Numbered from the stretch's first letter, positions 46,554-63,762 are shown. The stretch is 64,000 nt of DNA from an uncultured Verrucomicrobiota bacterium (GCA_964611575.1 CAZTAJ010000004.1:8287-72286); one strand, 5' to 3'. Translations and numbers: made by a program. Notes: generated by a model not told the origin, from the letters alone.

Positions 46554-47994
46554 GTTTCGCCCTCCGCATGGCGCCACCATCCAGTCTCGCCCCGATCACC
46601 GTCCCATCCCTGCCGGTGATAGAGTTCGTCAGCGGCGGAAGGGGCCCGGAAAAGACTTCGACCATCGAATGCCTGTCCAGACCCGTATGATCGATGAACG
46701 CCCGCACATCCCCGGACGGAAGGTTCGTCCCGGGATACGCCACCCTTTTCGATTGCAGGAAGTTATCGTCCAGGTCCAGCGTCGCCTCCGACATGCCGCG
46801 CCATCGGGAGAAGTCATAGAGCGTCTCGCACCCGATAAACGCGGAATGGTCAATTCTCAACGCGCGGGCGGACACCACCTCCACCCCCGTCTTCACGCCG
46901 TAGACGGTCGATTGCTTGAGGGACAATGTACCGCTCAGGATGAAAATGCCCCCGCCGACATCGCCGGTTCTCCCCAGGAAACAATTGATCAGGGTGACAT
47001 CCGCATCGTTGACGACATTCAACTGGGGGCCCACGTTGTTGCGGATGACGCAGTTCTCCATGACGAACTTTCCGCGATGGAACTCGACCCCGCCCTGGAA
47101 CGGGTTGTCTTCGATCACACAGTCCCGGTACGTGACCTCAGCTTCGGGATAGACATCGACGATGCCGCAGTTGGCGTTGTGGTCGAAACGGGAATCGACC
47201 ACGGTGGCCTTCGTGGTGCCGTGGTGGGACATACCCTGATCCATGTTGTAGCAGCCCCTGACGTTTTCGAAACGCACCCCGACATTCTTGCTGGAGGAGA
47301 AGCCGTCATTGCACGAGTACATGCTGGTCAGATTCCGGACCGTCACATGGTCGCTTCCGATGCTGACGATGCCGTCCCCACCCGGGGCCTCGATCTTGAT
47401 ATCGGCGGGGGTCTTGCCGTCGGGCAGCCGCACATAGAGCGTGTTCCTCAGCGGGTCCGGCTCCCGCTTGCCCGCGACGGCGGGAAAGTAGGCATTGGCG
47501 TGCAGGAAGTATCCGCCGGCAACCAGACTCGCGCGGGTTTCGCCATTTATCCCCGGCTTGCCGTCGAAGAACACCAGGTCGAACCCCACCCAGTAGCTGC
47601 GGCTCGTGTGATAGTTGTTGGACAGCATGAGGCTGAACACCTGGTTCCCCTCATCTTTCCATTCCCCGGCTTGATAATGCGTCAGCCCGGTGATGGTGGC
47701 CCCATGTCCGTCGATCACCGTCGGCTTATCCTGGCTGCCGCCCGGGATATACCAAAACGCCAGATGATCGAAGTGCTCGCGCCGTCGATACGGCTCACCC
47801 GTATTCGCCAGATGGAGGGTGTCGCCCGTCCGCATGGCCTTCGCCGCCGGCCGAAGCGTTTGGAAGGGGGCCTGTTCCGTGCCCGGATTCCGGTCGTCGC
47901 CGGCCTTGTTGTTCACGTAGATGTCGCCGGCGCACGCGACCAACGAAGCCATCATGACAACCGGCACGACCGCGAGCCAACCGGCCTCAGGCAT
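46540..47994 (-). CDS. secreted right-handed parallel beta-helix protein, paralog of 17989..19455
   Basis: 'DIYVNNKAGDDRNPGTEQAPFQTLRPAAKAM' parallels 'TLYVNNRTGNDTFDG...PFATIMKAVSMA' in the other copy. Length is similar (484 vs 488 aa). Confidence 0.65.
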   Translation of the reverse strand: MPEAGWLAVVPVVMMASLVACAGDIYVNNKAGDDRNPGTEQAPFQTLRPAAKAMRTGDTLHLANTGEPYRRREHFDHLAFWYIPGGSQDKPTVIDGHGATITGLTHYQAGEWKDEGNQVFSLMLSNNYHTSRSYWVGFDLVFFDGKPGINGETRASLVAGGYFLHANAYFPAVAGKREPDPLRNTLYVRLPDGKTPADIKIEAPGGDGIVSIGSDHVTVRNLTSMYSCNDGFSSSKNVGVRFENVRGCYNMDQGMSHHGTTKATVVDSRFDHNANCGIVDVYPEAEVTYRDCVIEDNPFQGGVEFHRGKFVMENCVIRNNVGPQLNVVNDADVTLINCFLGRTGDVGGGIFILSGTLSLKQSTVYGVKTGVEVVSARALRIDHSAFIGCETLYDFSRWRGMSEATLDLDDNFLQSKRVAYPGTNLPSGDVRAFIDHTGLDRHSMVEVFSGPLPPLTNSITGRDGTVIGARLDGGAMRRAKHDRD

Positions 47995-47997
47995 GGG

Positions 47998-49164
47998 TCA
48001 TGCCCCCCTGATGCTTTCCAATGTTCCGTCCTCAATAGTCGCGCCTGCGGCGTCCGCCACTGTGGCCACCCCGACTGCATGTTCGGCGTGACCATAGGGC
48101 GTCACCAACTTGCATTCCACAACGACCCGCGGCTGGTCCGGCGGCTCGTTCCGCATCAGCCGGATCAGCAAATCCGCCATTCCCAACGCCTCCGCCTCGG
48201 AATCGGACTCGATGCGGGCCACGGGGAACGGAGCGCTGACCGCCGCCCCACGCGACGCATGCGCAACCACATGCAGGTCTTCCGGCACCCGAATGCGCAT
48301 GTTGAGCAAGGCCAGGCAAGCGTCCTGGAAAAGGACCTCATCGGTGACCACAAGCCCATCCGGCTTGTCGGCGCGCGCGCGCCATAGATCGCGAAATACC
48401 TCCCAGCCCCCGCCTTCCTGCGTGGCGCGAAGTTCCGTCCGGCACCACGCGGGGAAGAACGGCAATCCCTCCGCCTGAAGTTCGGCCTCCAGAATGCCTG
48501 CCAAAGGCGGTTGCCCCGCAGGCCGCGTGCGTTCGCTATCCGCACCGATCAGGGCAATGCGGCGGCATCCAATCTCATGCAGGTGCTGGACACCCATGCG
48601 GACCACGCTGCGCTGCCCGCCGGGGTCGACTCCATACGCATAGGAGACACCACCCACCACCGGCACGTGCTGCTCCATAAGCGGTTTCATCCAGGCGGAA
48701 TCGGGCGGTGTAGCCGCCGCGAGGACGCCGCACAGGCGGCCCTCCGCCACGTCCGACAGGAATTCCGGAGGCGCGGTCCGCTGGTCTGCGCTCTGGTTGC
48801 GCCCGAGATACACGCGGCAGCGATAGCCCTGGCTCCACAGTCGTTCCTGGAACGTCTGGATCATGCGCATCCAATGCCGGGGTGGACGGGCGGGAGCAAG
48901 ATCCAACGTGGTCAGAATGCCGACCCATTGTCGCCTGCTGCGGTCCAGCACATACACCCCGCTGCCCTGCTTACGTTCCAGCCATCCCTCGTGACAGAGA
49001 ATCGAGACCGCCTCCCGCAACGTGATGAGGCTCACGCCGAATCGCTTGCTGAGACTCGCCTCGGGCGGCAGGCAATCGCCAACTTTGCAGCATCCGGCGA
49101 TTTCCCGTCGAATACTCTCAAGAACCAGCTCACGGAGCGGCTGACGCGGTTTCTTCTTGCTCAT
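47998..49164 (-). CDS. GntR-type HTH regulator fused to a LacI/PBP1-like sugar-binding domain
   Basis: 'LPPEASLSKRFGVSLITLREAVSILCHEGWLERKQGSGVYV' is the GntR winged HTH. The C-terminal ~300 aa resemble a LacI-type ligand domain. Its stop is 3 nt from the next gene's start. Confidence 0.75.
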   Translation of the reverse strand: MSKKKPRQPLRELVLESIRREIAGCCKVGDCLPPEASLSKRFGVSLITLREAVSILCHEGWLERKQGSGVYVLDRSRRQWVGILTTLDLAPARPPRHWMRMIQTFQERLWSQGYRCRVYLGRNQSADQRTAPPEFLSDVAEGRLCGVLAAATPPDSAWMKPLMEQHVPVVGGVSYAYGVDPGGQRSVVRMGVQHLHEIGCRRIALIGADSERTRPAGQPPLAGILEAELQAEGLPFFPAWCRTELRATQEGGGWEVFRDLWRARADKPDGLVVTDEVLFQDACLALLNMRIRVPEDLHVVAHASRGAAVSAPFPVARIESDSEAEALGMADLLIRLMRNEPPDQPRVVVECKLVTPYGHAEHAVGVATVADAAGATIEDGTLESIRGA

Positions 49165-49342: not shown

Positions 49343-52300
49343 TCACTTGTTACCCGCCACGAAGTACCGGACCTGGTGGCGACCGATCTTCACCGTTAAC
49401 CTGCCGTCTTCACACGGAATCCGTTCGCCGCTCTCCAGATCCTGCACGTCAGCAATGTTGCACGACAAGATCTTTTGCCCTTCGATCGAGAAAGTCGTCT
49501 CAACGTCCTTCTCGTCGCCGTTCAGGAGTATCAGCACGGCCCGCTTTCCCTGGGGATGGACGTAGCCCCCGAGCAGCATCTTCTCCGGCAGCGGGGAGTG
49601 CCAGCCGCCGTCTTCCCAGCAGGGGACCAGTCGCGCGCCGTCGAAGAAGCCGACCTCTGTTTGCAGACGGTCCAGCATCTGCTGAACGTCCTTTTTCAGC
49701 GAGAAGTAGGTGATGCGCATCCCCCGGTCGAAAAGAAGACAATACCCCAGCACCAGTCGCTCCGCGGTGCGGTTGTATGTCCTGTCGCTCTCATACGGCG
49801 GGAAGTTGGGAGAAATCACCACGGGCGATTCGGGGCGCACGGTCAACGCCTGGAAGGCGTCCGGGGTGAATCCCGTGTCGATGTAGTCATGATTGGGGTT
49901 GGCGGTGTAGCTTCTGCCTTCAATGGCATACCCCATCTGAGTGAAAGACGGTTGCGGCTCGGAGACATTCATGCAATTGAACGGCGGCCGCCCGCACAGC
50001 CAGAGGGCCGTGGAGATGCGACGGAGCAGATCCCGCCGCCGGAAGACACCGGCCAACCCCTGAAGCGTGCCGTCATCGCGGCGGTAGGCGTCACCGGTCG
50101 CGTCGGTATCCACGGGGAAACGGATGAAATGCTCGAAATTGTCGTTGTAGGTTCCGTTGAAGCCCGACTTTTCGGCCGCCTGTGTGATATGCCAGATGAA
50201 GAAGTCCCGGTAACTCTCTCCACCCGTGGACCAGAATTGCCCCAGCTTGTCGTCGATGTCCCAAATACGGGTGCCGCCCAGGTTCTTCTTCCCCTTCTTC
50301 TGCAGGCCATACATCGTTGCCGAGTCCTTCAGCACGGCATCGTTGTCCCCCACCCCCAGTCCCCATTCGCCACGAAACGTCGGGAATTCGCGGCAGCCGG
50401 TGCCGACACAGGAGATGGACCCGTACAGCTTCACCGGCCGGTCCTCACGCGCCGGCAGGGCCCAACGCATCGGGTAGTCGCTGGGTTCGCCGTTCTTGCA
50501 GATGCCCCGGTCCCTTGGCCCCAGCTTCATGTCGTGCAAGGCGTAGCGGAGTCCCTCATAGTCCTCATCGGTATACAACGTGAAGGTCGGCCAGCCGGTG
50601 CCAATGACGTAGTTACCGGTCCAGTGGTTCGCGCAAAGCCCATTGGAGGTCATCATCCCCTTCCCCGTGGTGGCATCGGATTCCCACTGCAAGGCCCGAT
50701 GGTTAGCAAACCGGGGCTTGGTGGGAGAGGCGAGTACGGCAAACACGATCTCGCGTGGGCTCCTGATTTCGGCAGGGGTGTTGACCAGACGCAGGCGCAA
50801 CAGCAGCTTGCCGCCGTCGTCGCGCTCCAGTCGGACCAGACTTTCCTTGTCGCTGGTCACCCACCCCTTATCGCTCTCGGCGTACCACCATAGGCCGCGC
50901 GAGTAGTTGCCGATATACGCAGCGGGGATGAACGAGTTCCGGCAGTTGGCGACCATCGGCAGCGACGTGCTCTCCCACAGGATCCCCGAACCTTTCGGTA
51001 TCGTAGCCTGCTTGTAGATCTCGCCCCTTTCAAACCTCATGAGATTGGCTGCCGAATCGAAGGGAATGACCAGGTCCAGGCTGTTCACCTTCGCCCCGGA
51101 TGACGGCGGCGTGAGCCTGAGTTTGACCCGGTACCAGCCATCGTACTCCATGGTCCCGGCGATCTCACACGTGAGATCCCCGATCGTTCCTTCCGCCGAA
51201 ACCGTCGCGGCATAGCCGTCGGTGTCCTCCAGTCTGGCTTTTGGACAGGACCCCTGGAACTGGTAGCGCTCGAATTCCGCAGGAACTTTCTGCCCCTTCA
51301 CTCGAACCACTTGTGTGCGGGTGACTGGCGTCAGGACCTTCTTCTCCCCCTTGATGTCGGCAATCAGGGTCATCGGGCCCGCCAGGATCTCCCGACCCTC
51401 GGCCTTGATTGAAACCGGCAGCCCGTTTTCCCCGAGATCGTACTCCCGCCCCCACACGCCGATCCTGGTCCCGTCAGTGGTGACCGGTATCCAGGGGGGA
51501 ATGATCACCTTCTCCTTGCCGATCGTGTTGTGCTCCCATGGGAAACGGTCACGGACAATCTCCCGCTTCTCGACATCGACCGTCTCATCGCCATTCTGCA
51601 GTTCGATCACCAGCGTGTAACGGCCGGCCGGCAGAGGCTGCGTCAGTTCGGCCAGAACGCGTCCTTTCTGTTCGGACAGATCGGCCGCGGCCTGTCCATA
51701 CACGGTGCCGTCTTTGTCCACCAGGCGCACGCACATGCTTTTGGCCGCGATGATCTTGTCCGCCTTCTGCGGATCATCGGACAGTGCTCGATCGATACGT
51801 GTATCCACCCAGGTTTCCAGTTTGTTGTAGTAAGGATAGAACGCATGGCGATAGGTGGCGTGGGCCGGGAAAGCGATCTTGCGGGATGACCGCCAAAGCT
51901 CCATCTTTTTGTTGAAATCGCTCCGCGCATACCCCTTGAAGGGGAGACTGACCGAATAGAGTTCATACGGGGCACCGGGCCTGTTCTCATACACCCGAAG
52001 GGCCAGGAGATTGTCTTCCCGCGGTTTGAAAGCCGCCCGTCCGGCATCAAACTCAAACCCCTCGCCCGGCAACAGGATCTTCTTCAGGGTGTTGGTCAGG
52101 AGTTCTGTCCCGCCTGAGGTGACCGTCAGGTCGACGCAGTACTCCTGTTTGCCGTTGTGTCCCTTGTTGAACACGGTGCTCTTGTAATGCAGGTTGCCGA
52201 TATTGACGTTGCCCAGCCACCCCCCGAGATAGACGGGGGCCGTGGCCTCGAAGAGGACCTCCCCGAAGCGGTCCCACTCGGTCAGCCCGGCCGGCGCCCA

Positions 52301-52981
52301 GGAGATATACGAAAACCCGTCACGCCCCCCCGCGGAACAACGGGCAAGCTGCAGGAGCATCCGCTTCCCTTCCAGCGAGGGGGTGTCTATCTGTTTCAGC
52401 GGGATGCTGATCTCCGTGATCCACCGGATTGAATCGGCCCAGTAGTTCATGAAGGAACACTTGACCTCGGCCCCGCTCGACCAGTCCAGACGGTCCTGAC
52501 CGGGCTCGGCGTTGCGGATGATGTCGTACAGCGCTCCTTTCGGGTTCACCGCCAGCATGAAGTACTTCTGCGTTCCCGCCCGCTCCCTGGGGTTGAAACT
52601 GAACTGGATCACCACATGGTCATCCTTCAAAATCGCCGGATCGTCATTGGCGACGGCCGTGGCAATGAACGCCGCGCTTTTCGGCTGGATGCAGACGGCC
52701 ATGAAATAGAGGCGCTGATCGTCATAGTTGATCCGCCAGCGGACATCCAGTCCGCTGGATTCGCTCACCAGGCCGGCGGGGGCGTTGACCATGCCGACCA
52801 GGCCGCAGGCCCCCTTCCATTCCGGATCGGAGACAGACGCATCCATCCGGTAGACCTTTTCGTGGAGACGATCCCGGGTGACCCTCAGGAACGGAGGCTG
52901 CCCCGGCGCAGAAGCCGCAGTCACAACGCAACCGATGGTGGATATGACAGCGGTCAGCCAGGAACAAATGCCTCGATGCAT
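49343..52981 (-). CDS. large secreted CBM9/DOMON-like domain protein, putative glycoside hydrolase (DUF6067/GH123-like architecture suspected)
   Basis: The true start is the ATG at 52981 (TGATG overlap with the upstream stop), giving 1212 aa. It has a signal anchor 'ICSWLTAVISTIGCVVTAASA'. 'VSDPEWKGACGL...DVRWRINYDDQRLYFMAVC' is CBM9-like. The track's further 200-aa N-terminal extension is a high-GC artefact. Confidence 0.55.
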   Translation of the reverse strand: MHRGICSWLTAVISTIGCVVTAASAPGQPPFLRVTRDRLHEKVYRMDASVSDPEWKGACGLVGMVNAPAGLVSESSGLDVRWRINYDDQRLYFMAVCIQPKSAAFIATAVANDDPAILKDDHVVIQFSFNPRERAGTQKYFMLAVNPKGALYDIIRNAEPGQDRLDWSSGAEVKCSFMNYWADSIRWITEISIPLKQIDTPSLEGKRMLLQLARCSAGGRDGFSYISWAPAGLTEWDRFGEVLFEATAPVYLGGWLGNVNIGNLHYKSTVFNKGHNGKQEYCVDLTVTSGGTELLTNTLKKILLPGEGFEFDAGRAAFKPREDNLLALRVYENRPGAPYELYSVSLPFKGYARSDFNKKMELWRSSRKIAFPAHATYRHAFYPYYNKLETWVDTRIDRALSDDPQKADKIIAAKSMCVRLVDKDGTVYGQAAADLSEQKGRVLAELTQPLPAGRYTLVIELQNGDETVDVEKREIVRDRFPWEHNTIGKEKVIIPPWIPVTTDGTRIGVWGREYDLGENGLPVSIKAEGREILAGPMTLIADIKGEKKVLTPVTRTQVVRVKGQKVPAEFERYQFQGSCPKARLEDTDGYAATVSAEGTIGDLTCEIAGTMEYDGWYRVKLRLTPPSSGAKVNSLDLVIPFDSAANLMRFERGEIYKQATIPKGSGILWESTSLPMVANCRNSFIPAAYIGNYSRGLWWYAESDKGWVTSDKESLVRLERDDGGKLLLRLRLVNTPAEIRSPREIVFAVLASPTKPRFANHRALQWESDATTGKGMMTSNGLCANHWTGNYVIGTGWPTFTLYTDEDYEGLRYALHDMKLGPRDRGICKNGEPSDYPMRWALPAREDRPVKLYGSISCVGTGCREFPTFRGEWGLGVGDNDAVLKDSATMYGLQKKGKKNLGGTRIWDIDDKLGQFWSTGGESYRDFFIWHITQAAEKSGFNGTYNDNFEHFIRFPVDTDATGDAYRRDDGTLQGLAGVFRRRDLLRRISTALWLCGRPPFNCMNVSEPQPSFTQMGYAIEGRSYTANPNHDYIDTGFTPDAFQALTVRPESPVVISPNFPPYESDRTYNRTAERLVLGYCLLFDRGMRITYFSLKKDVQQMLDRLQTEVGFFDGARLVPCWEDGGWHSPLPEKMLLGGYVHPQGKRAVLILLNGDEKDVETTFSIEGQKILSCNIADVQDLESGERIPCEDGRLTVKIGRHQVRYFVAGNK

Positions 52982-55900
52982 CACCGGCCCTGCTCCTTCG
53001 GCATCGGTTCGACGGCTTTCGCTCCACTCACCGCGTAGGGGGCGCCGTCCTGCGGGCGACCCAGCGGCCAGGCTTTCTGGATGAAGACGTACGCCTCCAT
53101 GCGGCTCGGAGGGAGCCGCAGATTCAAGGTCACCCCGTTGGGACCGGTCACCTCGCGGACGCCCAGATTCGGGTCCCTGCCACCCTGGCCCTTGGCCCCG
53201 GCAAGGGTGAACCGGGTGAGATGCTGAATCTCCCACTCGCCGTCCAGGTTGTAGCCGAGCCCGCGCCAGTCGGGCGCCAGGATGGCCGACAGGTCCTTCT
53301 CGCCCCAGTTGGCGACGTAGAAGATCAGGCGCCGGGCCGAGCGCCAGGCCGTGATCTGGAGAGCGGGGTCCGTGTGCCGGAACCATCGCGAGGTCCGCCA
53401 CGGCGGGATCACCTCCCACTCCACGGCCGGATCCATGGTGCGCGTCATCGCCGGGGGAAACGTGCTGAAAGGCTCGTCGGTGAAGACCCCGCCGGGAATG
53501 GTCCCGCCCACACTCGTGATACCCCACATCGCCAACTCGGCCTGGTTGGTCTCGAACCGGTCGTCCTTGTCCGGCACCGCCGCGTGCCACATGTTGTTAA
53601 GCTGGAATACCGGCATGCCCCAGGCCAGCGAGTGGTATAGCATCATCTTTTCGCCGAGATAGCGGATGACCGGCGCGGGGCCCTTCTCCGGGATCGGGCA
53701 GGGAATGTGCTCGCCCTCGATGCGTTCCTCGACAAAGGGGAAGAGGTGAATCCACTGGTGCGGAGCCGATGTGTGGAAGGTGTTACAGGACGGCCGCCCG
53801 AGTTCCCAGGGCACCAGCGCGCAGCGTTTGAAGAACTCCCGCAGCGCAAAGAGGCCGAACCCCGGCTGCACCCGGCCGTCGTCCATGACGTAGCCCATGC
53901 CCGCGTCCACGTCATCCCCGAACGGCGCCGCCACGCAGTCGAAGTAATAGGCGTCAATCCCATAGGGAATGCTGAGCCATTTGGACATGTGGAAGGCGGT
54001 GAACCGGCGGTACGATTCGGGGAAGATGGCCGTTTCCCAGTCGGGGTAGCCGAAGGGAATCTCGGCCTTGGAGCCGGTCTCGATGTGGATCGCGCAGTGG
54101 TCGTTCAGCGAGCCGCGCGCCAGATCGACGCCGTACGGCGGCTTGCCGCCATGCACGTAAGGCGTGGAGGCGAACTGGGACCACTTGTCGTAATCGACGC
54201 AATCCACCGTGCGCGGCGCATTCTCGGTCGCGCCGCGGCCCGACTTGACCACGTTGACCATGGTCCACTGGCGCTGCCGGTACTCCGGCCGGCTGCCCTT
54301 GCCCGGCGGCGGGAAAGGCCGGCCCGGCGTGGCCTCGAGCGCAAAGACCACCGTGCGGTCCGATCCCAACTGGAACGGCTCGCCCACAAGGTTCAGCACA
54401 AAGGCGCGCGTCGTCCGATCCTCCGACCCGACCACCTGCACCGCCGGAACCTTGCCCGAAGGCACCCACCCCTTGTCGTTGTCGCCAAAGAACAGCACGC
54501 CGTTCTCCAGCGTGCCGACCCATACCGACGGCACAAAGCTGCCGACCGTCATAGGCAGTTGCGTCTCTGGTTCGCTGCTGGCCCACTGCACGCCCGAGCG
54601 GTCCGCGAGCCTTCGCGCGACATGCGTGGAGGTGATCTTCGGCAGCGTGATCCAGGGCACGGCGTCCCAGGCATAGGGAATCACCAGCCGCAGGGAGTCC
54701 ATGGCAACGGGCTTGTCCTTGGCGGCCGGGCCGTAGGTGATGGCGAGTTTCAGCATGCCGTCGCACTCGAACCAGGTGTCCACTGCGAAACGGACGCCGC
54801 CCATCTCGAAGGTCCCCTGCCCCTGCACTCGGACCTCGTTCTGCTCGCGCACGGCGAACCCGCCGCCGCCCGTGGTGTCCGACCGGCACGCCTGGCCGTT
54901 GAGGGTACCCTCGATCCGCACCGGGCCCGTCAGCACGCCGGTCTGCGTCCAGCCGCCCCATACGCGCGGAAGCCGCGACGGGTCGGTGTTCTGGACGATC
55001 TGCGCCGGGAGCCCGTTCGCGCCCATGCGGTACTCGCGGTTCCAGCACGCCAGGGTGCTGGTGGTCCGATCGTAGCGGCAGGGCGTGAACCAGGGCAGCC
55101 GCTGGTCCGACGTGCCCGCCAGGCAGGTCTCCCACGGGTAGTCCTTGACCTCGCAGGTATAGGTGTCCTGGGCAATGGGCTGGCCCGACTTGTCGGTGAT
55201 CACGATATCGGCGGTGTAGGCCCCCGCCTTGAGGACGATGTTGGAAGCCGCGGAGGTGAAGTAGTCGTCAAACGCCGGTGTCTGGAGGGCCAGGACCGTC
55301 CGGCCCGCGGCGTCCTTCAACGCCATGCGCGCGCCCGTCGCCTCGCCGCGCCGCGGCAAGGTGAAACTATCCACGTCCAGCCGGAGTTTGCCCTGCGTCT
55401 TGTAGTAGCGCACATCGTAGGCAAACGCCCGGGGCGCCGCCGTGTATTTCAGCTCGTCGGTATTCCAGAGCGGCTGCACATCCAGCCTGCGCCGGTAATA
55501 CACGTCCTTGCCGGCGGTGTCGGACACCATGATCTCCACAACATAGGGATCGTAGACCTTGCGCGCCTCAGCCTTGCCGCCGGTCTTCTCCGCCTGGACC
55601 TGAGCCTCCTTGTCCACCTCCATCCGGAAGGTTGGATCGTAGGGCAGGCTCTTGAAGGCGAAAGCCTGCGCCGGCGCAAGGGACACCTTCTGGGCTAGGG
55701 ACTTGAGTACGGTGACTTCCGCGGGCTTCTTCGGGTCCGGCCGCGCCTCGCGCGTGACCAGCACACGCAGCAGGGCTTCCTGCGGCTTGGCGGTGAGGTT
55801 GACGATACTGAGCGGCAACTCGTTGCCGCCCTGCATGAGGCTGTCCACCGCCCCCATCTGTACCGCGACGGGCGAACCGTCCAGGCCGAGATCCAGCGTC

Positions 55901-56580
55901 TTCAGGAACGTGCGCTGCAGCGCCGCCTGGTTCCAGGGATGATGAAAGTTGCAGGCCATCATCAGCCCCCACACGTCGCCCGGCACGTAGCCTTTCTTCA
56001 GCATCGTGCGGATGTCCGTGGAGAACTCCAACTCCCATACGCCGTTTTGGAAAGTGCTGGCTGAGACGGTCTTGGGGCTCCAGTTGTTGAATACCTGGCC
56101 GATCAGCTTTGCCTCCAGGGCATCGGTGATCGCCCCCCGCACGTTGGCGATGAACAGGTACGGTCCGATTTCCTGGTCGCTGGCCGACTGCGTGGCCTTC
56201 GGCGGGACCAGACGCATTTCCAGCGAGTCCTCGACCACCGTGACCCGGTCGTGCTTGCGGGTCCGGTAAGTGGGGATCTCCCCGGCCCGCATCTTGACCC
56301 GCATCGCCGTGTAGACATTCGTGCCGTCAAAGCCGAACCAGAACACCGCCTGCCGCGGGCTGAGGGCGCTCTGCACGGAATGCAGGCCCGCGAGCCCGAT
56401 CGCCTCGCGCCATTCGTCCGCGCCGATCTTGCCGTCGATGACCGGAACCTGGGTCATGCGCGGCACCTTGATCTGCTGCGGCGTGTCGAGCATCGCCCGC
56501 AGCTCCGGGGTGAGTTCCTCCGCGAACCCGTTTAGTCCGCCCAATCCCAATACAACCGCCAAGACCAGTGCTTTGCGCAT
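52981..56580 (-). CDS. large secreted CBM9/DOMON-like domain protein, putative glycoside hydrolase; distant paralog of 49343..52981
   Basis: The ATG at 56580 gives 'MRKALVLAVVLGLGGLNGFA'. 'VPVIDGKIGADEWREAIGL...FWFGFDGTNVYTAMRV' is CBM9-like. The C-terminal region 'IDAYYFDCVAAPFGDDVDAGMGYVMDDGRVQPGFGLFALREFFKR' parallels 'YNDNFEHFIRFPVDTDATGDAYRRDDGTLQGLAGVFRRRDLLRR' in the neighbour. Confidence 0.55.
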   Translation of the reverse strand: MRKALVLAVVLGLGGLNGFAEELTPELRAMLDTPQQIKVPRMTQVPVIDGKIGADEWREAIGLAGLHSVQSALSPRQAVFWFGFDGTNVYTAMRVKMRAGEIPTYRTRKHDRVTVVEDSLEMRLVPPKATQSASDQEIGPYLFIANVRGAITDALEAKLIGQVFNNWSPKTVSASTFQNGVWELEFSTDIRTMLKKGYVPGDVWGLMMACNFHHPWNQAALQRTFLKTLDLGLDGSPVAVQMGAVDSLMQGGNELPLSIVNLTAKPQEALLRVLVTREARPDPKKPAEVTVLKSLAQKVSLAPAQAFAFKSLPYDPTFRMEVDKEAQVQAEKTGGKAEARKVYDPYVVEIMVSDTAGKDVYYRRRLDVQPLWNTDELKYTAAPRAFAYDVRYYKTQGKLRLDVDSFTLPRRGEATGARMALKDAAGRTVLALQTPAFDDYFTSAASNIVLKAGAYTADIVITDKSGQPIAQDTYTCEVKDYPWETCLAGTSDQRLPWFTPCRYDRTTSTLACWNREYRMGANGLPAQIVQNTDPSRLPRVWGGWTQTGVLTGPVRIEGTLNGQACRSDTTGGGGFAVREQNEVRVQGQGTFEMGGVRFAVDTWFECDGMLKLAITYGPAAKDKPVAMDSLRLVIPYAWDAVPWITLPKITSTHVARRLADRSGVQWASSEPETQLPMTVGSFVPSVWVGTLENGVLFFGDNDKGWVPSGKVPAVQVVGSEDRTTRAFVLNLVGEPFQLGSDRTVVFALEATPGRPFPPPGKGSRPEYRQRQWTMVNVVKSGRGATENAPRTVDCVDYDKWSQFASTPYVHGGKPPYGVDLARGSLNDHCAIHIETGSKAEIPFGYPDWETAIFPESYRRFTAFHMSKWLSIPYGIDAYYFDCVAAPFGDDVDAGMGYVMDDGRVQPGFGLFALREFFKRCALVPWELGRPSCNTFHTSAPHQWIHLFPFVEERIEGEHIPCPIPEKGPAPVIRYLGEKMMLYHSLAWGMPVFQLNNMWHAAVPDKDDRFETNQAELAMWGITSVGGTIPGGVFTDEPFSTFPPAMTRTMDPAVEWEVIPPWRTSRWFRHTDPALQITAWRSARRLIFYVANWGEKDLSAILAPDWRGLGYNLDGEWEIQHLTRFTLAGAKGQGGRDPNLGVREVTGPNGVTLNLRLPPSRMEAYVFIQKAWPLGRPQDGAPYAVSGAKAVEPMPKEQGR

Positions 56581-56849
56581 ATCGGTAGCCCCTCCGCCCG
56601 TGCCGTGAGCCGGTCGCCGGCACCCGGTGACCCGCGCGGCACCCGATGCGACTCCAGCTTCTCCCGGCACGTTTTGTTTGTGTGCTCTCTATAGAACATG
56701 AAGTCTAAAGTCAACTGGTATCTGGATCCAAACAATCGCTTGAAAGCATGAATGAACAATGATATGCAACTGTTGATTGATGGACAAAACCTGCAAGGAC
56801 AGCGCCGGAATCGTCATGGGTGATACGGCTCACAGAAGATGAGGAGTTT

Positions 56850-58064
56850 ATGCCTGATACCGTAGACGTCATGGTGCCCGTGCGCCGGATTTCGCCCAAG
56901 GGCGATCACACGTTCTTCGGATACTACGACATCCCCGCCGCGGATGCCGCCGGCCGGCATCTCTGCCAGCGGGTCAAGTTTTGCGACCGACTGCCGACTC
57001 CCTCGGACATGGCGCTCATAGGCTGGCTTGATCTGCCCACGGGGTCACAGGCGGCGGACGGCGAACCGCTCTTCCACGAGTTTGCTCAGACCGGTGCATG
57101 GAATTTCCAGCAAGGGTCCATGCTGCAATGGTTGCCGACGATGCCGGACACGTGTCTTTACAACATCGCCGAGAACGGGCAGTTGGGGTCCTGCATTCAC
57201 AATGTCCGAACGGACGCGCGACGCCGGCTCCCCCTCCCGGTGGCCAACGTGGCGCGGGATGGGACCAAGGCGTTGTGCATCAACATGGCGCGGGTGTACG
57301 ACTTCCGGCCGGGTTACGGTTACGAAGAGGCGCCGGACCCGTTCGCTGGCGTGGCCGTCCCCGACAAAGACGGCGTCTTTCTTCTGGATCTGACGACGGG
57401 CAAGTCGCGGCTCATCCTGTCGCTGACCGATATGGTGAGCTTCCTGGAGAAGCACGGCGAGACCACCGGCGGACGCAAGGTGGTCATCAACCACATCACC
57501 TTCAACCCGTCCGCGTCGCGCTTCCTGATCCTGTTGCGAACCTTCCCGAAAGCGCCAGGCGATCCCTGCATCACGTACCTGCTGACGGCCGATGCCACCG
57601 GCGGCAACCTGCGCCATCATCCGGTGTCCGGCATGGCGTCCCACTACCACTGGCGCGACGATGACGGCATGCTGTTCTATGCGAATGCCGCGACGGAACC
57701 GAAACCGGACCTCGTCCTCATCAGCGACAGGACCAGTGCCAGGACGATCTTTGATCCATCCTTCTTCCTGAAGGATGGGCATTGCTCCTACTCGCCGGAC
57801 AAGCGTTGGATCCTGTACGACAGCTATCCCGACACGTCCACGCCCGACTGGCTGCGCAAGTTGCAGGTCTATTCTGTCGACCGGAACGAGGGCATCAACC
57901 TGGGCCGGTTCCGTACGGAGCCCTTCACCAGGGAGACCATGGACCTGCGGTGCGACCTGCATCCGCGCTGGATGCAGGGCGGCCGCGCCATTACCTTCGA
58001 CTCGAACCACGAAGGGTTCCGGGGCGTCTATTGGGCGGATCTCAGCAAGATTGTGGCGGGCTGA
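56850..58064 (+). CDS. beta-propeller protein (TolB/oligogalacturonate-lyase-like)
   Basis: The ATG at 56850 is preceded by GAGGAG. 'HTFFGYYDIPAADAAGRHL' and the C-terminal 'CDLHPRWMQGGRAITFDSNHEGFRGVYWADL' resemble the 'D.HP.fSPDG..I.F.S' blades of PD40/PL22-type propellers. No signal peptide was seen. Confidence 0.5.
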   Translation: MPDTVDVMVPVRRISPKGDHTFFGYYDIPAADAAGRHLCQRVKFCDRLPTPSDMALIGWLDLPTGSQAADGEPLFHEFAQTGAWNFQQGSMLQWLPTMPDTCLYNIAENGQLGSCIHNVRTDARRRLPLPVANVARDGTKALCINMARVYDFRPGYGYEEAPDPFAGVAVPDKDGVFLLDLTTGKSRLILSLTDMVSFLEKHGETTGGRKVVINHITFNPSASRFLILLRTFPKAPGDPCITYLLTADATGGNLRHHPVSGMASHYHWRDDDGMLFYANAATEPKPDLVLISDRTSARTIFDPSFFLKDGHCSYSPDKRWILYDSYPDTSTPDWLRKLQVYSVDRNEGINLGRFRTEPFTRETMDLRCDLHPRWMQGGRAITFDSNHEGFRGVYWADLSKIVAG

Positions 58065-58237
58065 GACACCGCCTGGCCAGATGCCGATCCGGGAAGGCTC
58101 GACGCTCTGCTTGGTCTCTCCAGGCCCGGCGCACAACGTGCCCCTCACTTTCGGTGCGGAACGCGACGTAAGGTGCGGATCAAATAGGCTTGCGCCATTC
58201 ACGAGGCATTCGGCAGAATACGGCACGGGAGGTGCGG

Positions 58238-61126
58238 ATGCGCTCAAGAGTCAGACGGCTCGCTTTGCTTCTCGGCATGATGCCCCTGGCCACCCTCCTT
58301 CTCTCAGGTTGCGCCAGCCCGAATCTCAAGGGGACCCCCTACTATTCCACGGAAACCGATCCCGACCCCCGTGCCGCAAAAGAGCGCGTTCCGCTCTGGC
58401 CCATCGTCTACTATCGAAGCCCGACGCTCTCGATCCTCTGGCCGCTCTTCGAGAAGTCCGACGAGTTCATGGCCCTGCGCCCCCTGGCCTCGGTGTACGG
58501 GCTCGATCAACCGGGAAAAATCTACAGCCTGCTATGGCCGCTGGGACAGTTTGACCGGGTTGAAAAAGAGAACCGCTTCGTCCCCGTGTTCTGGGGGGAG
58601 GGTTATGCGGTGGCATTCCCCCTCTACTGGCATCTCGGCCATCCCCTGGAACCGGACGGCGGCACGGATGCCTTGATCCCACTGTGGTGGTACGCAACCG
58701 ATCGCACCGGCTATTCGTTCAATCTGGTCTGGCCCTTCGTCAATGTGAAGAAGCAGCGCGAGGTGCAAGGGTGGCGCGTCTGGCCCTTGATGGGAAGCTA
58801 CTCCCGCAGGGCCGGCGATTATTACCGGTTTGCGGCCTGGCCGCTCGCCCACCAGTGGGCCGCCGGCCGTGAACGAGGCGATGCGGTGATTCCTCTGTAT
58901 CTGCGCCACCTGTCGCCGGATGGGCACCTCTTCCTCTCCCTCCCCTACTCTCGTCATCGCGGAGCCGACGGACAATGGGACCTGGTGCTGCCGCTTCTCT
59001 ATCACGGCCGGGACGCGACGGGATACAAAACCATCACCCCACTCTTCTTCCAGGGCGGCAGCGCCGATCAGCGCAAGGCCTGGCAGCTCTTGTTGCCGCT
59101 CTACTACGCCAGCCGCAGGGATGACCGGCGGACGCTGGTCACACTGCTGGGCGGAACCCGTCGGGATGCCGACGGAATGGCATGGGTGATCGTGCCGCTG
59201 CTCTCCGGCGGCCGGAAGGCGAAGGACCGTCGCAGCACCTGGGTGCTGGGACCTTTGGCGCATTTCGGACGAGGTCCGGGATATGAGAGCCGTCATATAT
59301 TTCCATTCTTCTACTCAACCGCGGATGAGTCCGGTCGCACGTTCCTCTCGATCCCCTGGTCGAGCCGATCGAGAAGCGACGGGCAGAACTGGCAGTTGAT
59401 CCCCCCGCTCATGCTGAGAATGTCGGATGGCAAAGACCGGCGGTTGCTGACCCCGATCTATTCGGCCGGCACCCGCCACGGCGGGGCCGACGCCTGGCAG
59501 ACGGTGGTCCCGCTCTGGTACCGGAGTGGGGGCGCCGAAGGGAAGACGGTGGCCACACTGCTGGGGGGATGGCAGACGGGAGCGGATGGACGCCGGTGGT
59601 TGATCTGGCCGCTGCTGTCGGGTGGGCATCGTGGAACCGACGGACGGGATGTCTGGATTGTGGCGCCCCTGTTCCATGCCCGACGGGATCGGTCCGGCCT
59701 GTCACATCACCTCCTGCCGCTCTATGGGTGGGACGCCCATGACAAGACCCTGCTTTCGCCGGTGGTGTCAAAATGGCAGAACTCCGCCACCGGTCGCAAG
59801 ACAACCCTGGTCCCGCCGGCCCTGACGCTCTATTCCTCGGAGCCGAAGAAGAAGGATCTCTGGGCCTTGGCCGGGGCGGCTCATTTCAGTTGGGGGGAAG
59901 AGCCCGGATCCTCCCATGTTCTACCCCTGTACTATTACGACCGACCGGAAGGAACCTTTCTGTCAGTCCCCTGGTCGTCGTGGACCTGGAACCGGACGTC
60001 GACCAATACCCTGATCGCCCCGGCCCTGTCCTGGATGACGCGGCGGGAAGGGCGAAACGACCTCTGGGCCGTGGGTCCGCTCGCGCATCTCAGTTGGGGC
60101 GAGAAAGCCGGCTCATCCCATGTCCTGCCGCTGTTCTATCGGAACAAGCCGGACGATACGTTCATCTCCCTGCCCTACTGCCACTGGAACGATGACCGCG
60201 CGGAGCGCTACGTGTATCCGCCCCTGCTGTCGATGTTCACGCGAAACGGCAGGGAACGGCAATTGGATGCGGTGTTGGGTCTGTTTTCGGAGCGGTGGGG
60301 TGACGACCGGAACGAGGGGTATTTGCTTCCCCTTTACTACCACGACAACTGGGACAAGTTCTACACGCTCCTGTTCGGGTGGAACCGGGATGCCCACGAC
60401 GGTTTCTATTATCCCCTGACGCCCCTGCTGGGCGTCCGGACCGGCGAACACTCCGGGGGCTGGGTGTTCCCGTTCTGGTCGCGCGACCGCGATGCGGCAA
60501 CACAGCGGGTCACCGGAAATGTCCTATGGGGAACGTACACGGCGGACGGGGAGCGGACAGAATCGTCGCTGTTTCCGTTCTACGGCTACCATAACCGGGG
60601 CCCCATGCCGGCCGTCCTCCCGACCCCTTCCCAGGGCGCATCCTACGGAAAGACCTTCTGGAGCCTGCCGGCCGTCTGGTACCGCAATACGGTCGATGTC
60701 ACGCCGGTCAGCGATGGGACCGGCAAGGCCACGGGGAAGATGGAACGATCCGCCGCCCGCGATCACGGGTTCTTTCCCTTCTGGTCCTACACGCACCTGA
60801 CGACGCCGCTGGGGGGCGACGACCGGTACGGATCGTTCCTGCTTTGCCTCTATGATTTCAGGCGCACAAGCAAACCCAAGCCGGATGCCGTCCAGCCGCC
60901 GGACGAGCATGTCCGCAAGCGGATCCTCTGGCGCTTCTATCACTTCGAACGGAACAACGAGGATGTGAGTGTGGACATCTTCCCGGCGATCACCTACGAC
61001 CGCACCCACGACGGGTTCCGGCGCTGGTCCTTCCTGTGGCGCGTGTTCCGGTACGAACGGGGACCGGAAGGCAGGAAACTCGATCTCCTATTGGTCCCGC
61101 TGATACGGTCAGCCTCAACCCACTGA
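58238..61126 (+). CDS. large lipoprotein built from about 40 short aromatic/proline repeats, family unknown
   Basis: The ATG at 58238 has a GGGAGG RBS. Lipobox 'LATLLLSGC'. The body is a near-continuous array of degenerate 20-30-aa units centred on hydrophobic-P-[LF]-aromatic cores (e.g. 'SSHVLPLYYYDRPEGTFLSVPWSS' and 'SSHVLPLFYRNKPDDTFISLPYCH'). Confidence 0.7.
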   Translation: MRSRVRRLALLLGMMPLATLLLSGCASPNLKGTPYYSTETDPDPRAAKERVPLWPIVYYRSPTLSILWPLFEKSDEFMALRPLASVYGLDQPGKIYSLLWPLGQFDRVEKENRFVPVFWGEGYAVAFPLYWHLGHPLEPDGGTDALIPLWWYATDRTGYSFNLVWPFVNVKKQREVQGWRVWPLMGSYSRRAGDYYRFAAWPLAHQWAAGRERGDAVIPLYLRHLSPDGHLFLSLPYSRHRGADGQWDLVLPLLYHGRDATGYKTITPLFFQGGSADQRKAWQLLLPLYYASRRDDRRTLVTLLGGTRRDADGMAWVIVPLLSGGRKAKDRRSTWVLGPLAHFGRGPGYESRHIFPFFYSTADESGRTFLSIPWSSRSRSDGQNWQLIPPLMLRMSDGKDRRLLTPIYSAGTRHGGADAWQTVVPLWYRSGGAEGKTVATLLGGWQTGADGRRWLIWPLLSGGHRGTDGRDVWIVAPLFHARRDRSGLSHHLLPLYGWDAHDKTLLSPVVSKWQNSATGRKTTLVPPALTLYSSEPKKKDLWALAGAAHFSWGEEPGSSHVLPLYYYDRPEGTFLSVPWSSWTWNRTSTNTLIAPALSWMTRREGRNDLWAVGPLAHLSWGEKAGSSHVLPLFYRNKPDDTFISLPYCHWNDDRAERYVYPPLLSMFTRNGRERQLDAVLGLFSERWGDDRNEGYLLPLYYHDNWDKFYTLLFGWNRDAHDGFYYPLTPLLGVRTGEHSGGWVFPFWSRDRDAATQRVTGNVLWGTYTADGERTESSLFPFYGYHNRGPMPAVLPTPSQGASYGKTFWSLPAVWYRNTVDVTPVSDGTGKATGKMERSAARDHGFFPFWSYTHLTTPLGGDDRYGSFLLCLYDFRRTSKPKPDAVQPPDEHVRKRILWRFYHFERNNEDVSVDIFPAITYDRTHDGFRRWSFLWRVFRYERGPEGRKLDLLLVPLIRSASTH

Positions 61127-61326: not shown

Positions 61327-63018
61327 TCATCCCAGGCGGGCGCCCAATTCCAGAACGCCCCAAATGTTCAATTCTGGAACCCGCAAGGTCAGCCCCTGCG
61401 CACCCTGCTCCACTGTAACCGCCTGAGTCGGCCCCTCGGGACGGTGTAACACGGCTGCGCGAATGGACTGGAAGGCAGGGTGCGGATCGATCTGGATGAC
61501 AACCTCCCCTTGCGGCGCGAAACGGTCGCTCGCGGGATCGTAGGCCCGGTTGAGCAAGTGGACAACCGGCGGCGCCCCGGCCTTCATCCGGGGAAAGATC
61601 CATACGTCCTGGGACGATCGCCACGGGGTGGGTTTCCCCTTCTTCATCAGGGCCGCCGGATCGGTTTGCTCCGCGATGTCGACCACACCGGGATGGTCCG
61701 GGCGGAAGGGGTCGCGGTTGTCCCGCAGAACATGGTGATAGCCGGCGCATGTCTCCGCGAGTCGTCCCGGGTCGCCCAATCCCCAGTCGTTGGGAGCGAG
61801 CACCACATCGAAGGGGACGTTCCGTTCCGCCAGTTGCGCCATCAACCGGGTCATGCGACCACCCCCGTACAGATCCAGCGGGGGATTGAACAGCACAACG
61901 GTCGGAGGCGGAACGGCCCGATAGCCGTCGAACAACACGGCATGCGCTCGCACGAACCGGTAGTACGGAGCGTAGATCTCCGTACGACCATGATAGTAAT
62001 CGGAGCCCTTGCCCGGGGTGTGGCACCAGGCTGACTCGGGAGTCATCAGGCGCTGTCCGCAGGCATAGGCCTGGGCAATCCAAGAGCAAACGCGGTTCTC
62101 CAACTGGTGCGCTTTCACCCGGGCCCAGTCCTGCCCGCTGGCGGTGGCGGCCATCGGTTTGCCAAGGGCGTCAGCCAGACGGTAGGCGGTAACCGCCCCG
62201 CCGCCGTCAAGGGCGCCCTCGGCCTTCTGCTCCACCTCCCCCACCAGGTAGGTCAGATGGGGCGTCACGACCATATGCGGAGGCCAGGGCAGCCCCGTGT
62301 TGGCGCTGAGGGAAACCGGTCGTCCCACCACCTCCTCGGCGAGGGCGTGCAACTCGCGGACGTTCAGGGCCGCCTCATGCAGATGGAATTCGACAAATTC
62401 CCGGTGCAGGGGAATATCGTGTTGGACTTTCAAGTAGTCCTCCCTCGTGGAGGCATACCGGCGCACCAATGTCCGGTAATCGAACCCCTCGAGCGAGCCC
62501 ACGCCGGCGGCGGACCGCACGGAGGCCGGGACCGATTCCAGGTGCCGCCGGAACTTCTCCATGCAGAAGTCGCAGAAACAGCCCCCATAGCTGATGGCGG
62601 GATGCGCCGTACCGAGGTGGTCGTCCACATGCAGGCCATCGGCCCCGCCGGCCATGACCTCGCGCACCATCTTCCGCAGGTGGGCTCGAAAGGCGGGATG
62701 GTTGAAACAGCCCCACAGTTTGGGCCCGTCCTTCTCGCGGCTGTCCGACAACCATGGCACCGCGATGGGGGTCCCCGTAATGTCCCGGATCACTCCTTCC
62801 GCCAGATCGGGGGGTTGTTTGAGCAAAGGGCCCGCTGTCAGGCACCACATGGTGGCGGTCGGATGGACGCCCAATTCCCGGTAGAAGTCGACCTTTTCCC
62901 GTGTATGCGCCCCGCCCCAGGCCAGCACGGTCGCCCCGTAGGCCCGCACGGTTTCCGCATCGCGGGGGGGATACATGAACGCAACATCCGACTCCTTCAA
63001 ACCACGCCTGTCGTGCAT
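61327..63018 (-). CDS. cytoplasmic hypothetical protein, possibly glycosidase-like TIM barrel
   Basis: Long coding-like ORF. The ATG at 63018 is preferred (alternative at 63054). 'GGADGLHVDDHLG...YGGCFCDFCMEKFRRHLES' is reminiscent of GH-like barrels. No family was assigned. Confidence 0.5.
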   Translation of the reverse strand: MHDRRGLKESDVAFMYPPRDAETVRAYGATVLAWGGAHTREKVDFYRELGVHPTATMWCLTAGPLLKQPPDLAEGVIRDITGTPIAVPWLSDSREKDGPKLWGCFNHPAFRAHLRKMVREVMAGGADGLHVDDHLGTAHPAISYGGCFCDFCMEKFRRHLESVPASVRSAAGVGSLEGFDYRTLVRRYASTREDYLKVQHDIPLHREFVEFHLHEAALNVRELHALAEEVVGRPVSLSANTGLPWPPHMVVTPHLTYLVGEVEQKAEGALDGGGAVTAYRLADALGKPMAATASGQDWARVKAHQLENRVCSWIAQAYACGQRLMTPESAWCHTPGKGSDYYHGRTEIYAPYYRFVRAHAVLFDGYRAVPPPTVVLFNPPLDLYGGGRMTRLMAQLAERNVPFDVVLAPNDWGLGDPGRLAETCAGYHHVLRDNRDPFRPDHPGVVDIAEQTDPAALMKKGKPTPWRSSQDVWIFPRMKAGAPPVVHLLNRAYDPASDRFAPQGEVVIQIDPHPAFQSIRAAVLHRPEGPTQAVTVEQGAQGLTLRVPELNIWGVLELGARLG

Positions 63019-63198
63019 TAAGATTCCCTTCTTCCCACCAGTACTACGCTTCATTCGCCCCTGCCCAACACGCGGGCTATTTGCGTTCCGGAGCCGGATA
63101 CTGTACCTTCCGGCGCTCGGGTGAGTCAATTCCGCCGCGGATCACCACCGCAGACGGGGACAATCCCGATCTTTCCATGAAGTGTGAAAGGAGACGTC

Positions 63199-63762
63199 AT
63201 GCTTGAGGTCACAGTGAAGGAGGTTTGGGATGCGCTGGCGCTGGCGGAGAAGGATGATGCCTGCCTGGCCTTCTGGGAGGGCAAGGATGGCTTCAGCCGC
63301 GATGCCCAGCCCCGGGTGATCCAGCAACTCGCCGCCAAACTCAAGTTCAGGGAGGCCTCCCTTAAGCGCCTGCCGCCGCGCGAAAAAGCCCGCTACCTGC
63401 GCTGGCAGGCCGACAGCCCCTCGATGCGGTCCGCGTGCGACGATCTTCTGCGGTCCTGGATGGTGAGCCGGAAAAATCCCCTGCTGGTCTGTTTCGTCGA
63501 GGCGCAGGGACTGAAACACGCCGACGGGATCCTGGATGACGCCGCTGAAGCCCCCACCGCTGAAGCGGTCAAGCGGGGAGTCTGCGCCATTCGCGACCGG
63601 TTCCCGCCCCGCGAGGTCGCCCTCTACCTGGGATTCATCCTCGCCGCCGGGGGCGCATTCTGGACCGGGCTCGCCGAAGCCGTGGAGGCGGAGATCCCAA
63701 CCCTGAAAGCAGCCCTGGCGCCTCCCATCGCTCCCAGCCAATCGGCTGCCGGCGCGCAATAG
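63199..63762 (+). CDS. hypothetical protein
   Basis: The ATG at 63199 has an AAAGGAG RBS 6 nt upstream. The 187-aa product has no recognised motif. Confidence 0.45.
   Translation: MLEVTVKEVWDALALAEKDDACLAFWEGKDGFSRDAQPRVIQQLAAKLKFREASLKRLPPREKARYLRWQADSPSMRSACDDLLRSWMVSRKNPLLVCFVEAQGLKHADGILDDAAEAPTAEAVKRGVCAIRDRFPPREVALYLGFILAAGGAFWTGLAEAVEAEIPTLKAALAPPIAPSQSAAGAQ

Follow-up and report, generated by a model that had tools for sequence, protein, structure and literature searches.

Single-layer β-sheets built from hairpin repeats are a known fold class, represented by the TCP10 G-box of CPAP/SAS-4, the MORN-repeat proteins and the connector of Borrelia OspA. The G-box (4bxr, 4bxp, 4lzf) is an open single-layer antiparallel meander of short strands and tight turns in a eukaryotic centriole protein, and builds fibrils through strand pairing. 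MORN proteins (PF02493) form an elongated single sheet from tandem hairpins with conserved glycines and aromatic residues; they are cytosolic and frequently discussed as membrane-proximal. OspA is a bacterial lipoprotein with a solvent-exposed single-layer sheet, a short connector between two globular domains, which has been extended in engineered OspA (2fkg). Two further systems contain long continuous sheets: the YD/Rhs shells of teneurins, TcB/TcC and type VI secretion system Rhs proteins, in which many ∼20-aa hairpin repeats form one sheet that closes into a cocoon, and the β-belt of ApoB100 (9e9r), a very long amphipathic antiparallel sheet that lies on a lipid surface. Here we describe a 962-aa hairpin-repeat lipoprotein encoded at positions 58238 to 61126 (plus strand, stop codon included) of a 64,000-nt stretch of DNA from an uncultured Verrucomicrobiota bacterium (GCA_964611575.1 CAZTAJ010000004.1:8287-72286; the window). 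The protein is predicted to belong to the first of these fold classes and, in many relatives, is encoded in an operon-like cluster together with Arc3A/B and Aas/LplT lysophospholipid-repair systems.

The Arc3A and Arc3B proteins of Pseudomonas aeruginosa correspond to DUF2339 and DUF3999, respectively, and prevent the build-up of lysophospholipids when the phospholipase toxin Tle3 attacks (Ting et al., eLife 2022, PMC8926400). Their effect is additive to that of Aas, and aas genes adjoin arc3 genes in many bacteria (PMC8926400). The Arc3 proteins have no sequence similarity to the lipoprotein described here, and the published Arc3 system does not include its family.

The open reading frame (ORF) called for the lipoprotein gene spans 58190 to 61126 and opens with TTG. 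However, a Shine-Dalgarno-like GGAGG (58228 to 58232), read directly in the sequence, lies 5 nt upstream of the ATG at 58238, and for this reason we favor the 962-aa start over TTG 58190; the identical product is called on five public contigs. The N terminus reads MRSRVRRLALLLGMMPLATLLLSG|CASPN, in which a signal peptide (58238 to 58312) ends in the lipobox L-S-G-C with Cys25 (nt 58301 to 58312), in agreement with the bacterial lipoprotein pattern [LVI]-[ASTVI]-[GAS]-C. This lipobox (LLSGC), recognized in the original prediction, is conserved: G24 and C25 are each retained in at least 90% of an alignment of 103 homologs, and a simple lipobox pattern was found in 83 of the 120 homolog N termini among the matches listed. 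Most full-length homologs show the same signal peptide followed by G-C-[AST]-[ST] and then a conserved MKGTPFYTGEY motif. From the conserved lipobox we infer that the protein is a lipoprotein, probably processed by signal peptidase II (SPase II) and lipidated at Cys25. With a pI of 9.4 the mature protein is basic, and it is rich in aromatic residues (14.8%, with 5% Trp). Terminator-like matches were not clearly above shuffle expectation, and the sole promoter-like match lies on the opposite strand.

The protein had been described from its sequence as an array of about 40 degenerate units of 20 to 30 aa, each centered on a hydrophobic-Pro-Leu/Phe core. The strict motif [hydrophobic]-P-[LF]-[hydrophobic] is present in 22 copies, compared to 1.6 ± 1.2 (maximum 7) in 2,000 shuffles, and the shorter P-[LF]-[hydrophobic] in 26 copies, compared to 4.0 ± 1.9. 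The count of the strict motif thus shows that composition is not the source of the repeat. The motifs are spaced 17 to 20, 33 to 36 and 67 to 69 residues apart, and in the family alignment Pro reaches at least 60% at 50 positions, which recur every ∼17 residues. Based on these intervals, the basic unit is ∼17 aa and not 20 to 30 aa. Profile self-comparison revealed dominant lags of 68 to 69 and 137 to 138 aa between residues ∼177 and ∼720 (58766 to 60397), corresponding to nested super-repeats of four and eight hairpins, and the segment pairs that had been noted as near duplicates match these lags. A separate repeat of 36 residues (lag 36) is found at the C terminus. There, residues 889 to 959 (60902 to 61114) form the best conserved module, with two copies of LWRxxxYER-x(4-8)-D-hhh-(F/V)P hairpins. 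This module includes the sequence DVSVDxFPAITYDR and harbors the invariant or nearly invariant residues R895, L897, E904, D913, P916, T919, Y920 and D921, as well as R935, R938, Y939, E940, D949 and P954. Indeed, the N- and C-terminal modules are both conserved more strongly than the repeats between them.

An AlphaFold2 (AF2) model was calculated with the 103-sequence alignment, and strands were assigned by DSSP. The full-length model has a mean predicted local distance difference test score (pLDDT) of 83.8 and a predicted template modeling score (pTM) of 0.52, with residues 150 to 790 mostly at pLDDT 85 to 94. It contains 102 strands, mostly of 5 to 6 residues, connected by turns of 2 to 4 residues in one continuous antiparallel meander, as anticipated from the sequence in the form of β-hairpin units. 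When two 137-aa modules (residues 177 to 451; 58766 to 59590), comprising 16 hairpins, were modeled alone, the pLDDT rose to 97.6 and the pTM was 0.77. Structure prediction, which had been proposed as a way to tell a repetitive fold from disorder, therefore returned a repetitive all-β fold. At the N terminus, residues 2 to 21 are modeled as a helix, and residues 20 to 42 have pLDDT values below 50. The segment that follows the lipidated Cys (58313 to 58387) is of low model confidence and appears to be a tether; it carries a conserved K-G-T-P-Y/F-Y motif, of which G32, T33 and P34 are each retained in at least 90% of the homolog alignment. The main β-hairpin ribbon, residues 51 to 786 (58388 to 60595), contains 88 of the 102 strands. 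It is followed by a variable insertion, residues 787 to 845 (60596 to 60772), with a 14-residue loop and then strands of 9 to 15 residues, where the family consensus is mostly undefined ("x"). Thus, the model predicts with high confidence a long, narrow ribbon of ∼51 side-by-side, hydrogen-bonded 17-residue hairpins. Such a ribbon would be ∼2 nm wide and, if extended, up to 40 to 50 nm long (102 strands at ∼4.8 Å).

The turns of the model alternate, without exception, between hydrophobic (Φ-P-L/F) and polar (G/D/R/E) types, which places all turns of one type along one edge of the ribbon. Edge A consists of 51 turns (LPL, IPL, WPL, FPF, VPLL, LL), which are 93% apolar, and edge B of 50 turns (AD, DD, GR, ES, SDGQ, GEKAG), which are 74% polar. 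Pro is present in 41 of the 51 edge A turns, in line with the ∼40 repeat cores counted earlier by eye. To describe the unit across the family, we averaged 34 hairpins over the 103 sequences. In this profile hydrophobicity is maximal at the Pro turn, with L/V/I at positions −2/−3, L/F/W at −1 and L at +1, flanked by an aromatic collar (W at −4/−5, Y/W at +2/+3); Gly, Asp, Glu and Arg occupy the positions beyond ±6. On the Wimley-White interfacial scale, positions −5 to +4 relative to the Pro have negative energies. The profile therefore indicates that the ribbon is amphipathic across its width, with a greasy edge opposite a polar one, and does not set one face against the other.

These features bear on the suggestion, made in the original prediction, that the protein might be a very large β-barrel, solenoid or propeller array. 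As an all-β, aromatic-rich envelope protein it could in principle be an integral outer-membrane barrel, such as a giant porin or translocon. However, strands of 5 to 6 residues are too short to cross a bilayer, for which ∼9 or more are needed, and the hydrophobicity forms a gradient along the hairpin and shows no alternating in/out pattern. In addition, the C terminus (...VPLIRSASTH) lacks an aromatic β-signal and no barrel is among the Foldseek matches, so that we regard a barrel as effectively excluded. A choline-binding-type hairpin solenoid was also considered and rejected, as the turns are too short for the stacking of non-bonded hairpins.

Comparison of the full-length model with the PDB by Foldseek, ranked by E-value, listed teneurin and Tc-toxin YD shells, Sevenless, the ApoB100 β-belt and many propeller proteins. 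All of these matches have template modeling (TM) scores of 0.09 or less and root mean square deviations (RMSDs) of 34 to 69 Å and hence are alike only locally, at the level of the hairpin. The only compact superposition of the full model was obtained with the CPAP TCP10/G-box, at target-normalized TM scores (TMt) of 0.34 to 0.36. The 177 to 451 fragment matched, at a Foldseek probability of 1.00, the G-box, engineered OspA with its extended single-layer sheet and three ciliary central-pair proteins (chains 7sqc_9A/E/F). The match to the G-box (TMt 0.39 to 0.41 over ∼190 columns, RMSD 8 to 9.5 Å) was the best three-dimensional superposition obtained. MORN-repeat proteins in BFVD were also matched by the fragment at probability 1.00, with query-normalized TM scores (TMq) of 0.26 to 0.29. 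With neither the full model nor the fragment did Foldseek return a barrel, propeller or YD shell at TM ≥0.2; propeller structures reached at most 0.16 against the fragment. The barrel, solenoid and propeller proposals thus do not fit short strands, 2- to 4-residue turns and TM scores of at most 0.15 to 0.2. Instead, the best-supported shape is one long, open, twisted antiparallel β-meander ribbon, a predicted pattern that is continuous by DSSP and whose closest Foldseek analogs are open single-layer sheets.

The E-value ranking of teneurin, the Tc-toxin YD shells and propeller-rich proteins raises another explanation, namely, that the protein adopts a closed compact fold, either a Rhs/YD-like cocoon or a propeller array, that was missed by AlphaFold and Foldseek. 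We consider this quite improbable. The matches in question are local only, with TM scores no higher than 0.08 to 0.09, whereas the top matches of the 275-aa fragment are open sheets. With uniform turns of 2 to 4 residues there are no crossovers from blade to blade, neither a toxin nor a plug domain was found, and matches to RHS_repeat, PD40, WD40, Kelch and FG-GAP were all absent. Specifically, RHS_repeat, an Rhs core motif and an encapsulated C-terminal toxin domain were all missing in Pfam searches of the lipoprotein and of longer family members, and the YD/Rhs shells differ from the ribbon in their longer strands and closed cocoon (TM ≤0.08). Similarly, none of the propeller families PD40/TolB, WD40, Kelch, FG-GAP, LVIVD and Reg_prop was matched by the lipoprotein in Pfam or NCBIfam.

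The open-sheet analogs themselves resemble the lipoprotein only at the level of the fold. The G-box comprises ∼170 residues and ∼20 strands, compared to 102, shares ∼10% identity and no sequence relationship with the lipoprotein, curves differently (as reflected in the RMSD of 8 to 9.5 Å) and has neither a lipid anchor nor a hydrophobic Pro-Leu edge. The MORN unit is 23 aa long with the signature YxGxWxxGxxxGxG, whereas the unit here is 17 aa with the signature W-x-h-h-P-L-Y; MORN proteins are not lipoproteins, and neither PF02493 nor PF07661 was matched at E ≤ 1. OspA, at TM 0.23 to 0.26, has no repeats and no hydrophobic edge. ApoB100 gave a local Foldseek match (E 1.4e-6) at a TM score of ∼0.08 and offers a functional analogy for a lipid-contacting belt, but it is eukaryotic and nonhomologous, has longer strands and is amphipathic face-wise rather than edge-wise. 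The lipoprotein is therefore outside the G-box, MORN, OspA and ApoB100 families: it does not match them by profile, its repeat has another length and signature, and no TM score exceeds 0.41. The family is new and the fold class is known. What appears to be new, according to the model and the gene contexts, is the scale of 102 strands, the edge-wise amphipathicity and the combination of a lipid anchor with a lipid-repair gene context.

Sequence searches likewise found no characterized relative, in line with the original prediction, which could not place the protein in a known repeat family. Pfam and NCBIfam gave no match to the 962-aa protein at E ≤ 1, a single-sequence search of the PDB gave none, and the sole PDB match of the family profile was a designed Kelch-like protein, which reached E = 0.021 and contained no significant stretch. 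Homologs are nevertheless numerous. More than 220 homologous proteins were found at E ≤ 1e-3, and a profile search of 1.84 billion cluster representatives yielded 2,553 clusters at E ≤ 1e-3 and 712 at E ≤ 1e-30. The 120 homologs among the matches listed are 32 to 70% identical to the query, most over ∼97 to 100% of its length; all of them are annotated as "hypothetical" and lack precomputed Pfam domains. The named sources are Kiritimatiellia, Kiritimatiellae and Verrucomicrobiota metagenome-assembled genomes (MAGs). When GTDB species genomes were scanned with a C-terminal alignment of 12 sequences, 47 loci were found, each on its own assembly record and all in MAGs assigned to Kiritimatiellia, Verrucomicrobiota, Lentisphaerae/Victivallales or the Planctomycetes–Verrucomicrobia–Chlamydiae (PVC) group, apart from two records that are probably mis-binned. 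The window contains no second copy of the gene by tblastn. Family members range from 819 to ∼1,210 aa, and the longest reach 1,767 aa; the seven longer members that were scanned have no added Pfam domain, only extra repeats. Literature searches directed at Kiritimatiellia envelope proteins and single-layer-sheet lipoproteins retrieved nothing on these proteins. Thus, judged by sequence, this is an unannotated family of putative envelope lipoproteins, so far known only from Kiritimatiellia-like PVC bacteria. At three loci (L045, L049 and L006) the homolog appears as two consecutive ORFs, which suggests either a frameshift or assembly error in the repeats or a real split or duplication of the gene.

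Gene order was compared by clustering the ORFs of 51 related loci, of which ∼39 are informative at the species level. In 12 to 14 of these ∼39 loci, a protein of ∼1,140 aa is encoded directly upstream of the lipoprotein homolog and on its strand, the intergenic distance ranging from −4 to +59 nt. This protein contains MFS_1, Acyltransferase (PlsC) and AMP-binding domains and passes the NCBIfam equivalog NF006386, "acyl-[ACP]--phospholipid O-acyltransferase," with 1377.6 bits against a cutoff of 1221. By these matches it is a predicted fused LplT-Aas, combining a lysophospholipid transporter with a re-acylase. The downstream order on the same strand is an optional DUF2157 and GDYXXLXY, then an α/β hydrolase, DUF2339 and DUF3999, and at nine loci the hydrolase, DUF2339 and DUF3999 lie downstream of the lipoprotein homolog. 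Two extra metagenomic contigs confirm this arrangement. L056 encodes, in order, a radical-SAM/SPASM protein, the Aas fusion, the lipoprotein homolog, PlsY, a FeeM-like protein, a Rce1-like protein, the hydrolase, DUF2339 and DUF3999, and L057 encodes the lipoprotein homolog, DUF2157, GDYXXLXY, the hydrolase and DUF2339. The lipoproteins of the syntenic loci are 31 to 77% identical to each other (median, 40%) and are as distant from one another as from the window protein. Because of this divergence, the LplT-Aas/Arc3 arrangement is ancient and the window position derived, and the window copy has moved out of the ancestral lipid cluster to its present place, alone beside glycoside hydrolase genes.

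Several further observations concern the borders of this cluster. A DUF2157 membrane protein and GDYXXLXY are encoded between the lipoprotein gene and hydrolase-Arc3A-Arc3B in L016, L019, L028, L029, L032 and L057. The DUF2157 start overlaps the lipoprotein stop by 4 nt in L019, L029 and L032, and the called genes overlap by 4 nt in L057. Just upstream of the Aas-fusion/lipoprotein cluster, L056 (2425-4606) and L057 (5611-7454) encode an S-adenosylmethionine (SAM) methyltransferase, a radical-SAM/SPASM protein and a 91- to 103-aa ORF, which together look like a maturation cassette of the ribosomally synthesized and post-translationally modified peptide (RiPP) type. In L058, which holds a 61%-identical relative, a PEP-CTERM (exosortase sorting) protein is encoded directly upstream (7293-7847), an envelope-related, nonconserved neighbor.

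Our favored, though tentative, explanation, to which we assign a probability of roughly 0.45, is that the lipoprotein is a membrane- or lipid-contacting ribbon with a part in envelope lipid homeostasis. The role in lipid homeostasis is suggested by the ancestral neighborhood of LplT-Aas, hydrolase, Arc3A and Arc3B. After SPase II cleavage and lipidation of Cys25, a short flexible tether would lead into the ribbon of ∼51 hairpins. The ribbon would present a continuous greasy edge, collared by aromatic residues and about four residues (∼1 nm) deep, opposite an edge of Gly/Asp/Arg/Glu turns. The greasy edge would insert into a membrane leaflet or among lipid acyl chains and not into a protein core. 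So placed, the ribbon might capture lysophospholipids and fatty acids, or shield them, and hand them to LplT-Aas or Arc3; alternatively, it might guard the membrane surface against phospholipase damage. The conserved N- and C-terminal modules could be docking sites. A more specific version, which we regard as speculative and rather unlikely, is a lipid-anchored belt of tens of nanometers whose edge is embedded in the leaflet, or which forms an open slide across the periplasm, and which moves outer-membrane lysophospholipids and fatty acids to LplT-Aas and Arc3A/B.

Several points weigh against a lipid-contacting role. The full-length pTM is just 0.52, and aromatic and Arg ladders are able to stabilize single-layer sheets without a membrane. 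The window's own clade lacks the synteny, as do about two-thirds of the loci, and synteny is an association, not a mechanism. The family length range, 819 to ∼1,210 aa, argues against a strict molecular-ruler role. Finally, for a lipoprotein of this phylum the sorting compartment may be the inner or the outer membrane, on the periplasmic or the surface side.

Part of the same evidence is compatible with a structural envelope scaffold or tether, in which a rigid ribbon self-associates through its hydrophobic edge or terminal strands without specific lipid handling. As filaments, a lattice or a spacer, it would stabilize the outer membrane or set the periplasmic spacing. One conserved locus per genome, a gene that often stands alone beside envelope genes (OmpA, TolB-like, LptF/G, OEP, heptosyltransferase) and the stronger conservation of the terminal modules relative to the repeats are in line with such a function, as is the open single-layer sheet of the nearest solved fold, the fibril-building CPAP G-box. 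However, a scaffold leaves unexplained why the gene holds a translationally coupled place behind LplT-Aas and within the Arc3 cluster over deep divergence, and a fixed spacer is hard to reconcile with a repeat number that varies. We therefore view the self-associating scaffold as possible and as the most probable of the rival explanations, followed by the closed fold, then a glycan-binding role (see below) and last the barrel.

If the prediction holds, the lipoprotein would be among the longest continuous β-meander ribbons proposed for any protein, and we know of no other meander ribbon with a systematically hydrophobic edge. The family is lineage-wide in Kiritimatiellia, which are abundant degraders of sulfated glycans and mucin with few cultured members, and defines an unannotated group of putative envelope proteins there. 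A lipid-contacting ribbon associated with LplT-Aas and Arc3 would give a testable handle on how outer-membrane lysophospholipids reach the inner-membrane repair enzymes, and the association also bears on the physical action of the poorly understood Arc3 pathway. An open lipid slide, if true, would be mechanistically distinct from the groove or tunnel systems Lpt, Mla, MCE and AsmA/TamB. In addition, the 17-residue hairpin is a simple, regular module, modeled at pLDDT 97.6, that is potentially of interest for the design of single-layer β-sheets.

In the window, the lipoprotein gene is placed in a different setting, which the original prediction had described as a glycan locus with a β-propeller gene immediately upstream. 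A 404-aa ORF (56850-58064, plus strand) indeed ends 173 nt before the gene, as reported. Its assignment as a β-propeller is unconfirmed, since it has no Pfam match and TolB is reached only at E = 0.14 (residues 350 to 408); PDB sequence searches also gave no match. Upstream of it, on the minus strand and divergent from the lipoprotein gene, are two adjacent paralogs of ∼1,200 aa each (49343-53020 and 52981-56670), with weak GH123_N matches over ∼150 to 190 residues (E 1.6e-10 and 8e-7). These may represent a divergent glycoside hydrolase family; their ORFs overlap by at least ∼40 nt, the exact length being set by the choice of start codon. Also on the minus strand are a GntR + Peripla_BP_3 regulator (47998-49164), a GDSL esterase (45750-46580), a GH20 protein (43783-45753) and 5-enolpyruvylshikimate-3-phosphate (EPSP) synthase (41348-42790), and a 681-aa ORF without Pfam match lies on the plus strand (46342-48387). 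Downstream of the lipoprotein gene are two convergent ORFs without Pfam or NCBIfam match, encoding a protein of 563 to 600 aa (61327-63129, minus strand) and one of 192 aa (63184-63762, plus strand). No aas or arc3A homolog was found in the window.

This neighborhood would suit a surface glycan-binding lipoprotein of the SusE/F type, in which Trp and Tyr residues form a platform that serves the GH123-like and GH20 hydrolases. The two GH123_N-like genes, the GH20, the GDSL esterase and the GntR/Peripla_BP_3 regulator in the window, together with the 5% Trp and 14.8% aromatic content of the mature protein, speak for this idea. However, the glycan-locus neighbors and the upstream 404-aa ORF are kept only on contigs of the same organism, and the two downstream ORFs likewise adjoin the gene only there (L001-L003). 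Homologs at 54 to 70% identity have unrelated neighbors rather than glycan genes, as does the rest of the family, so that the links proposed earlier to a glycan locus and to the upstream gene do not extend beyond this organism. Moreover, the ancestral context is lipid metabolism, Pfam detected no carbohydrate-binding module, and the aromatic residues are located at the hairpin tips with Leu, Val and Pro and not on a flat polar face. We consequently find a glycan-binding function doubtful, somewhat more so than a closed fold. As a last observation on the window, its GC content is 57 to 67% and, with two exceptions, every 2-kb segment has a negative GC skew; between 1 and 56 kb almost every long ORF lies on the minus strand, and the lipoprotein gene and the upstream 404-aa ORF form a small plus-strand island.

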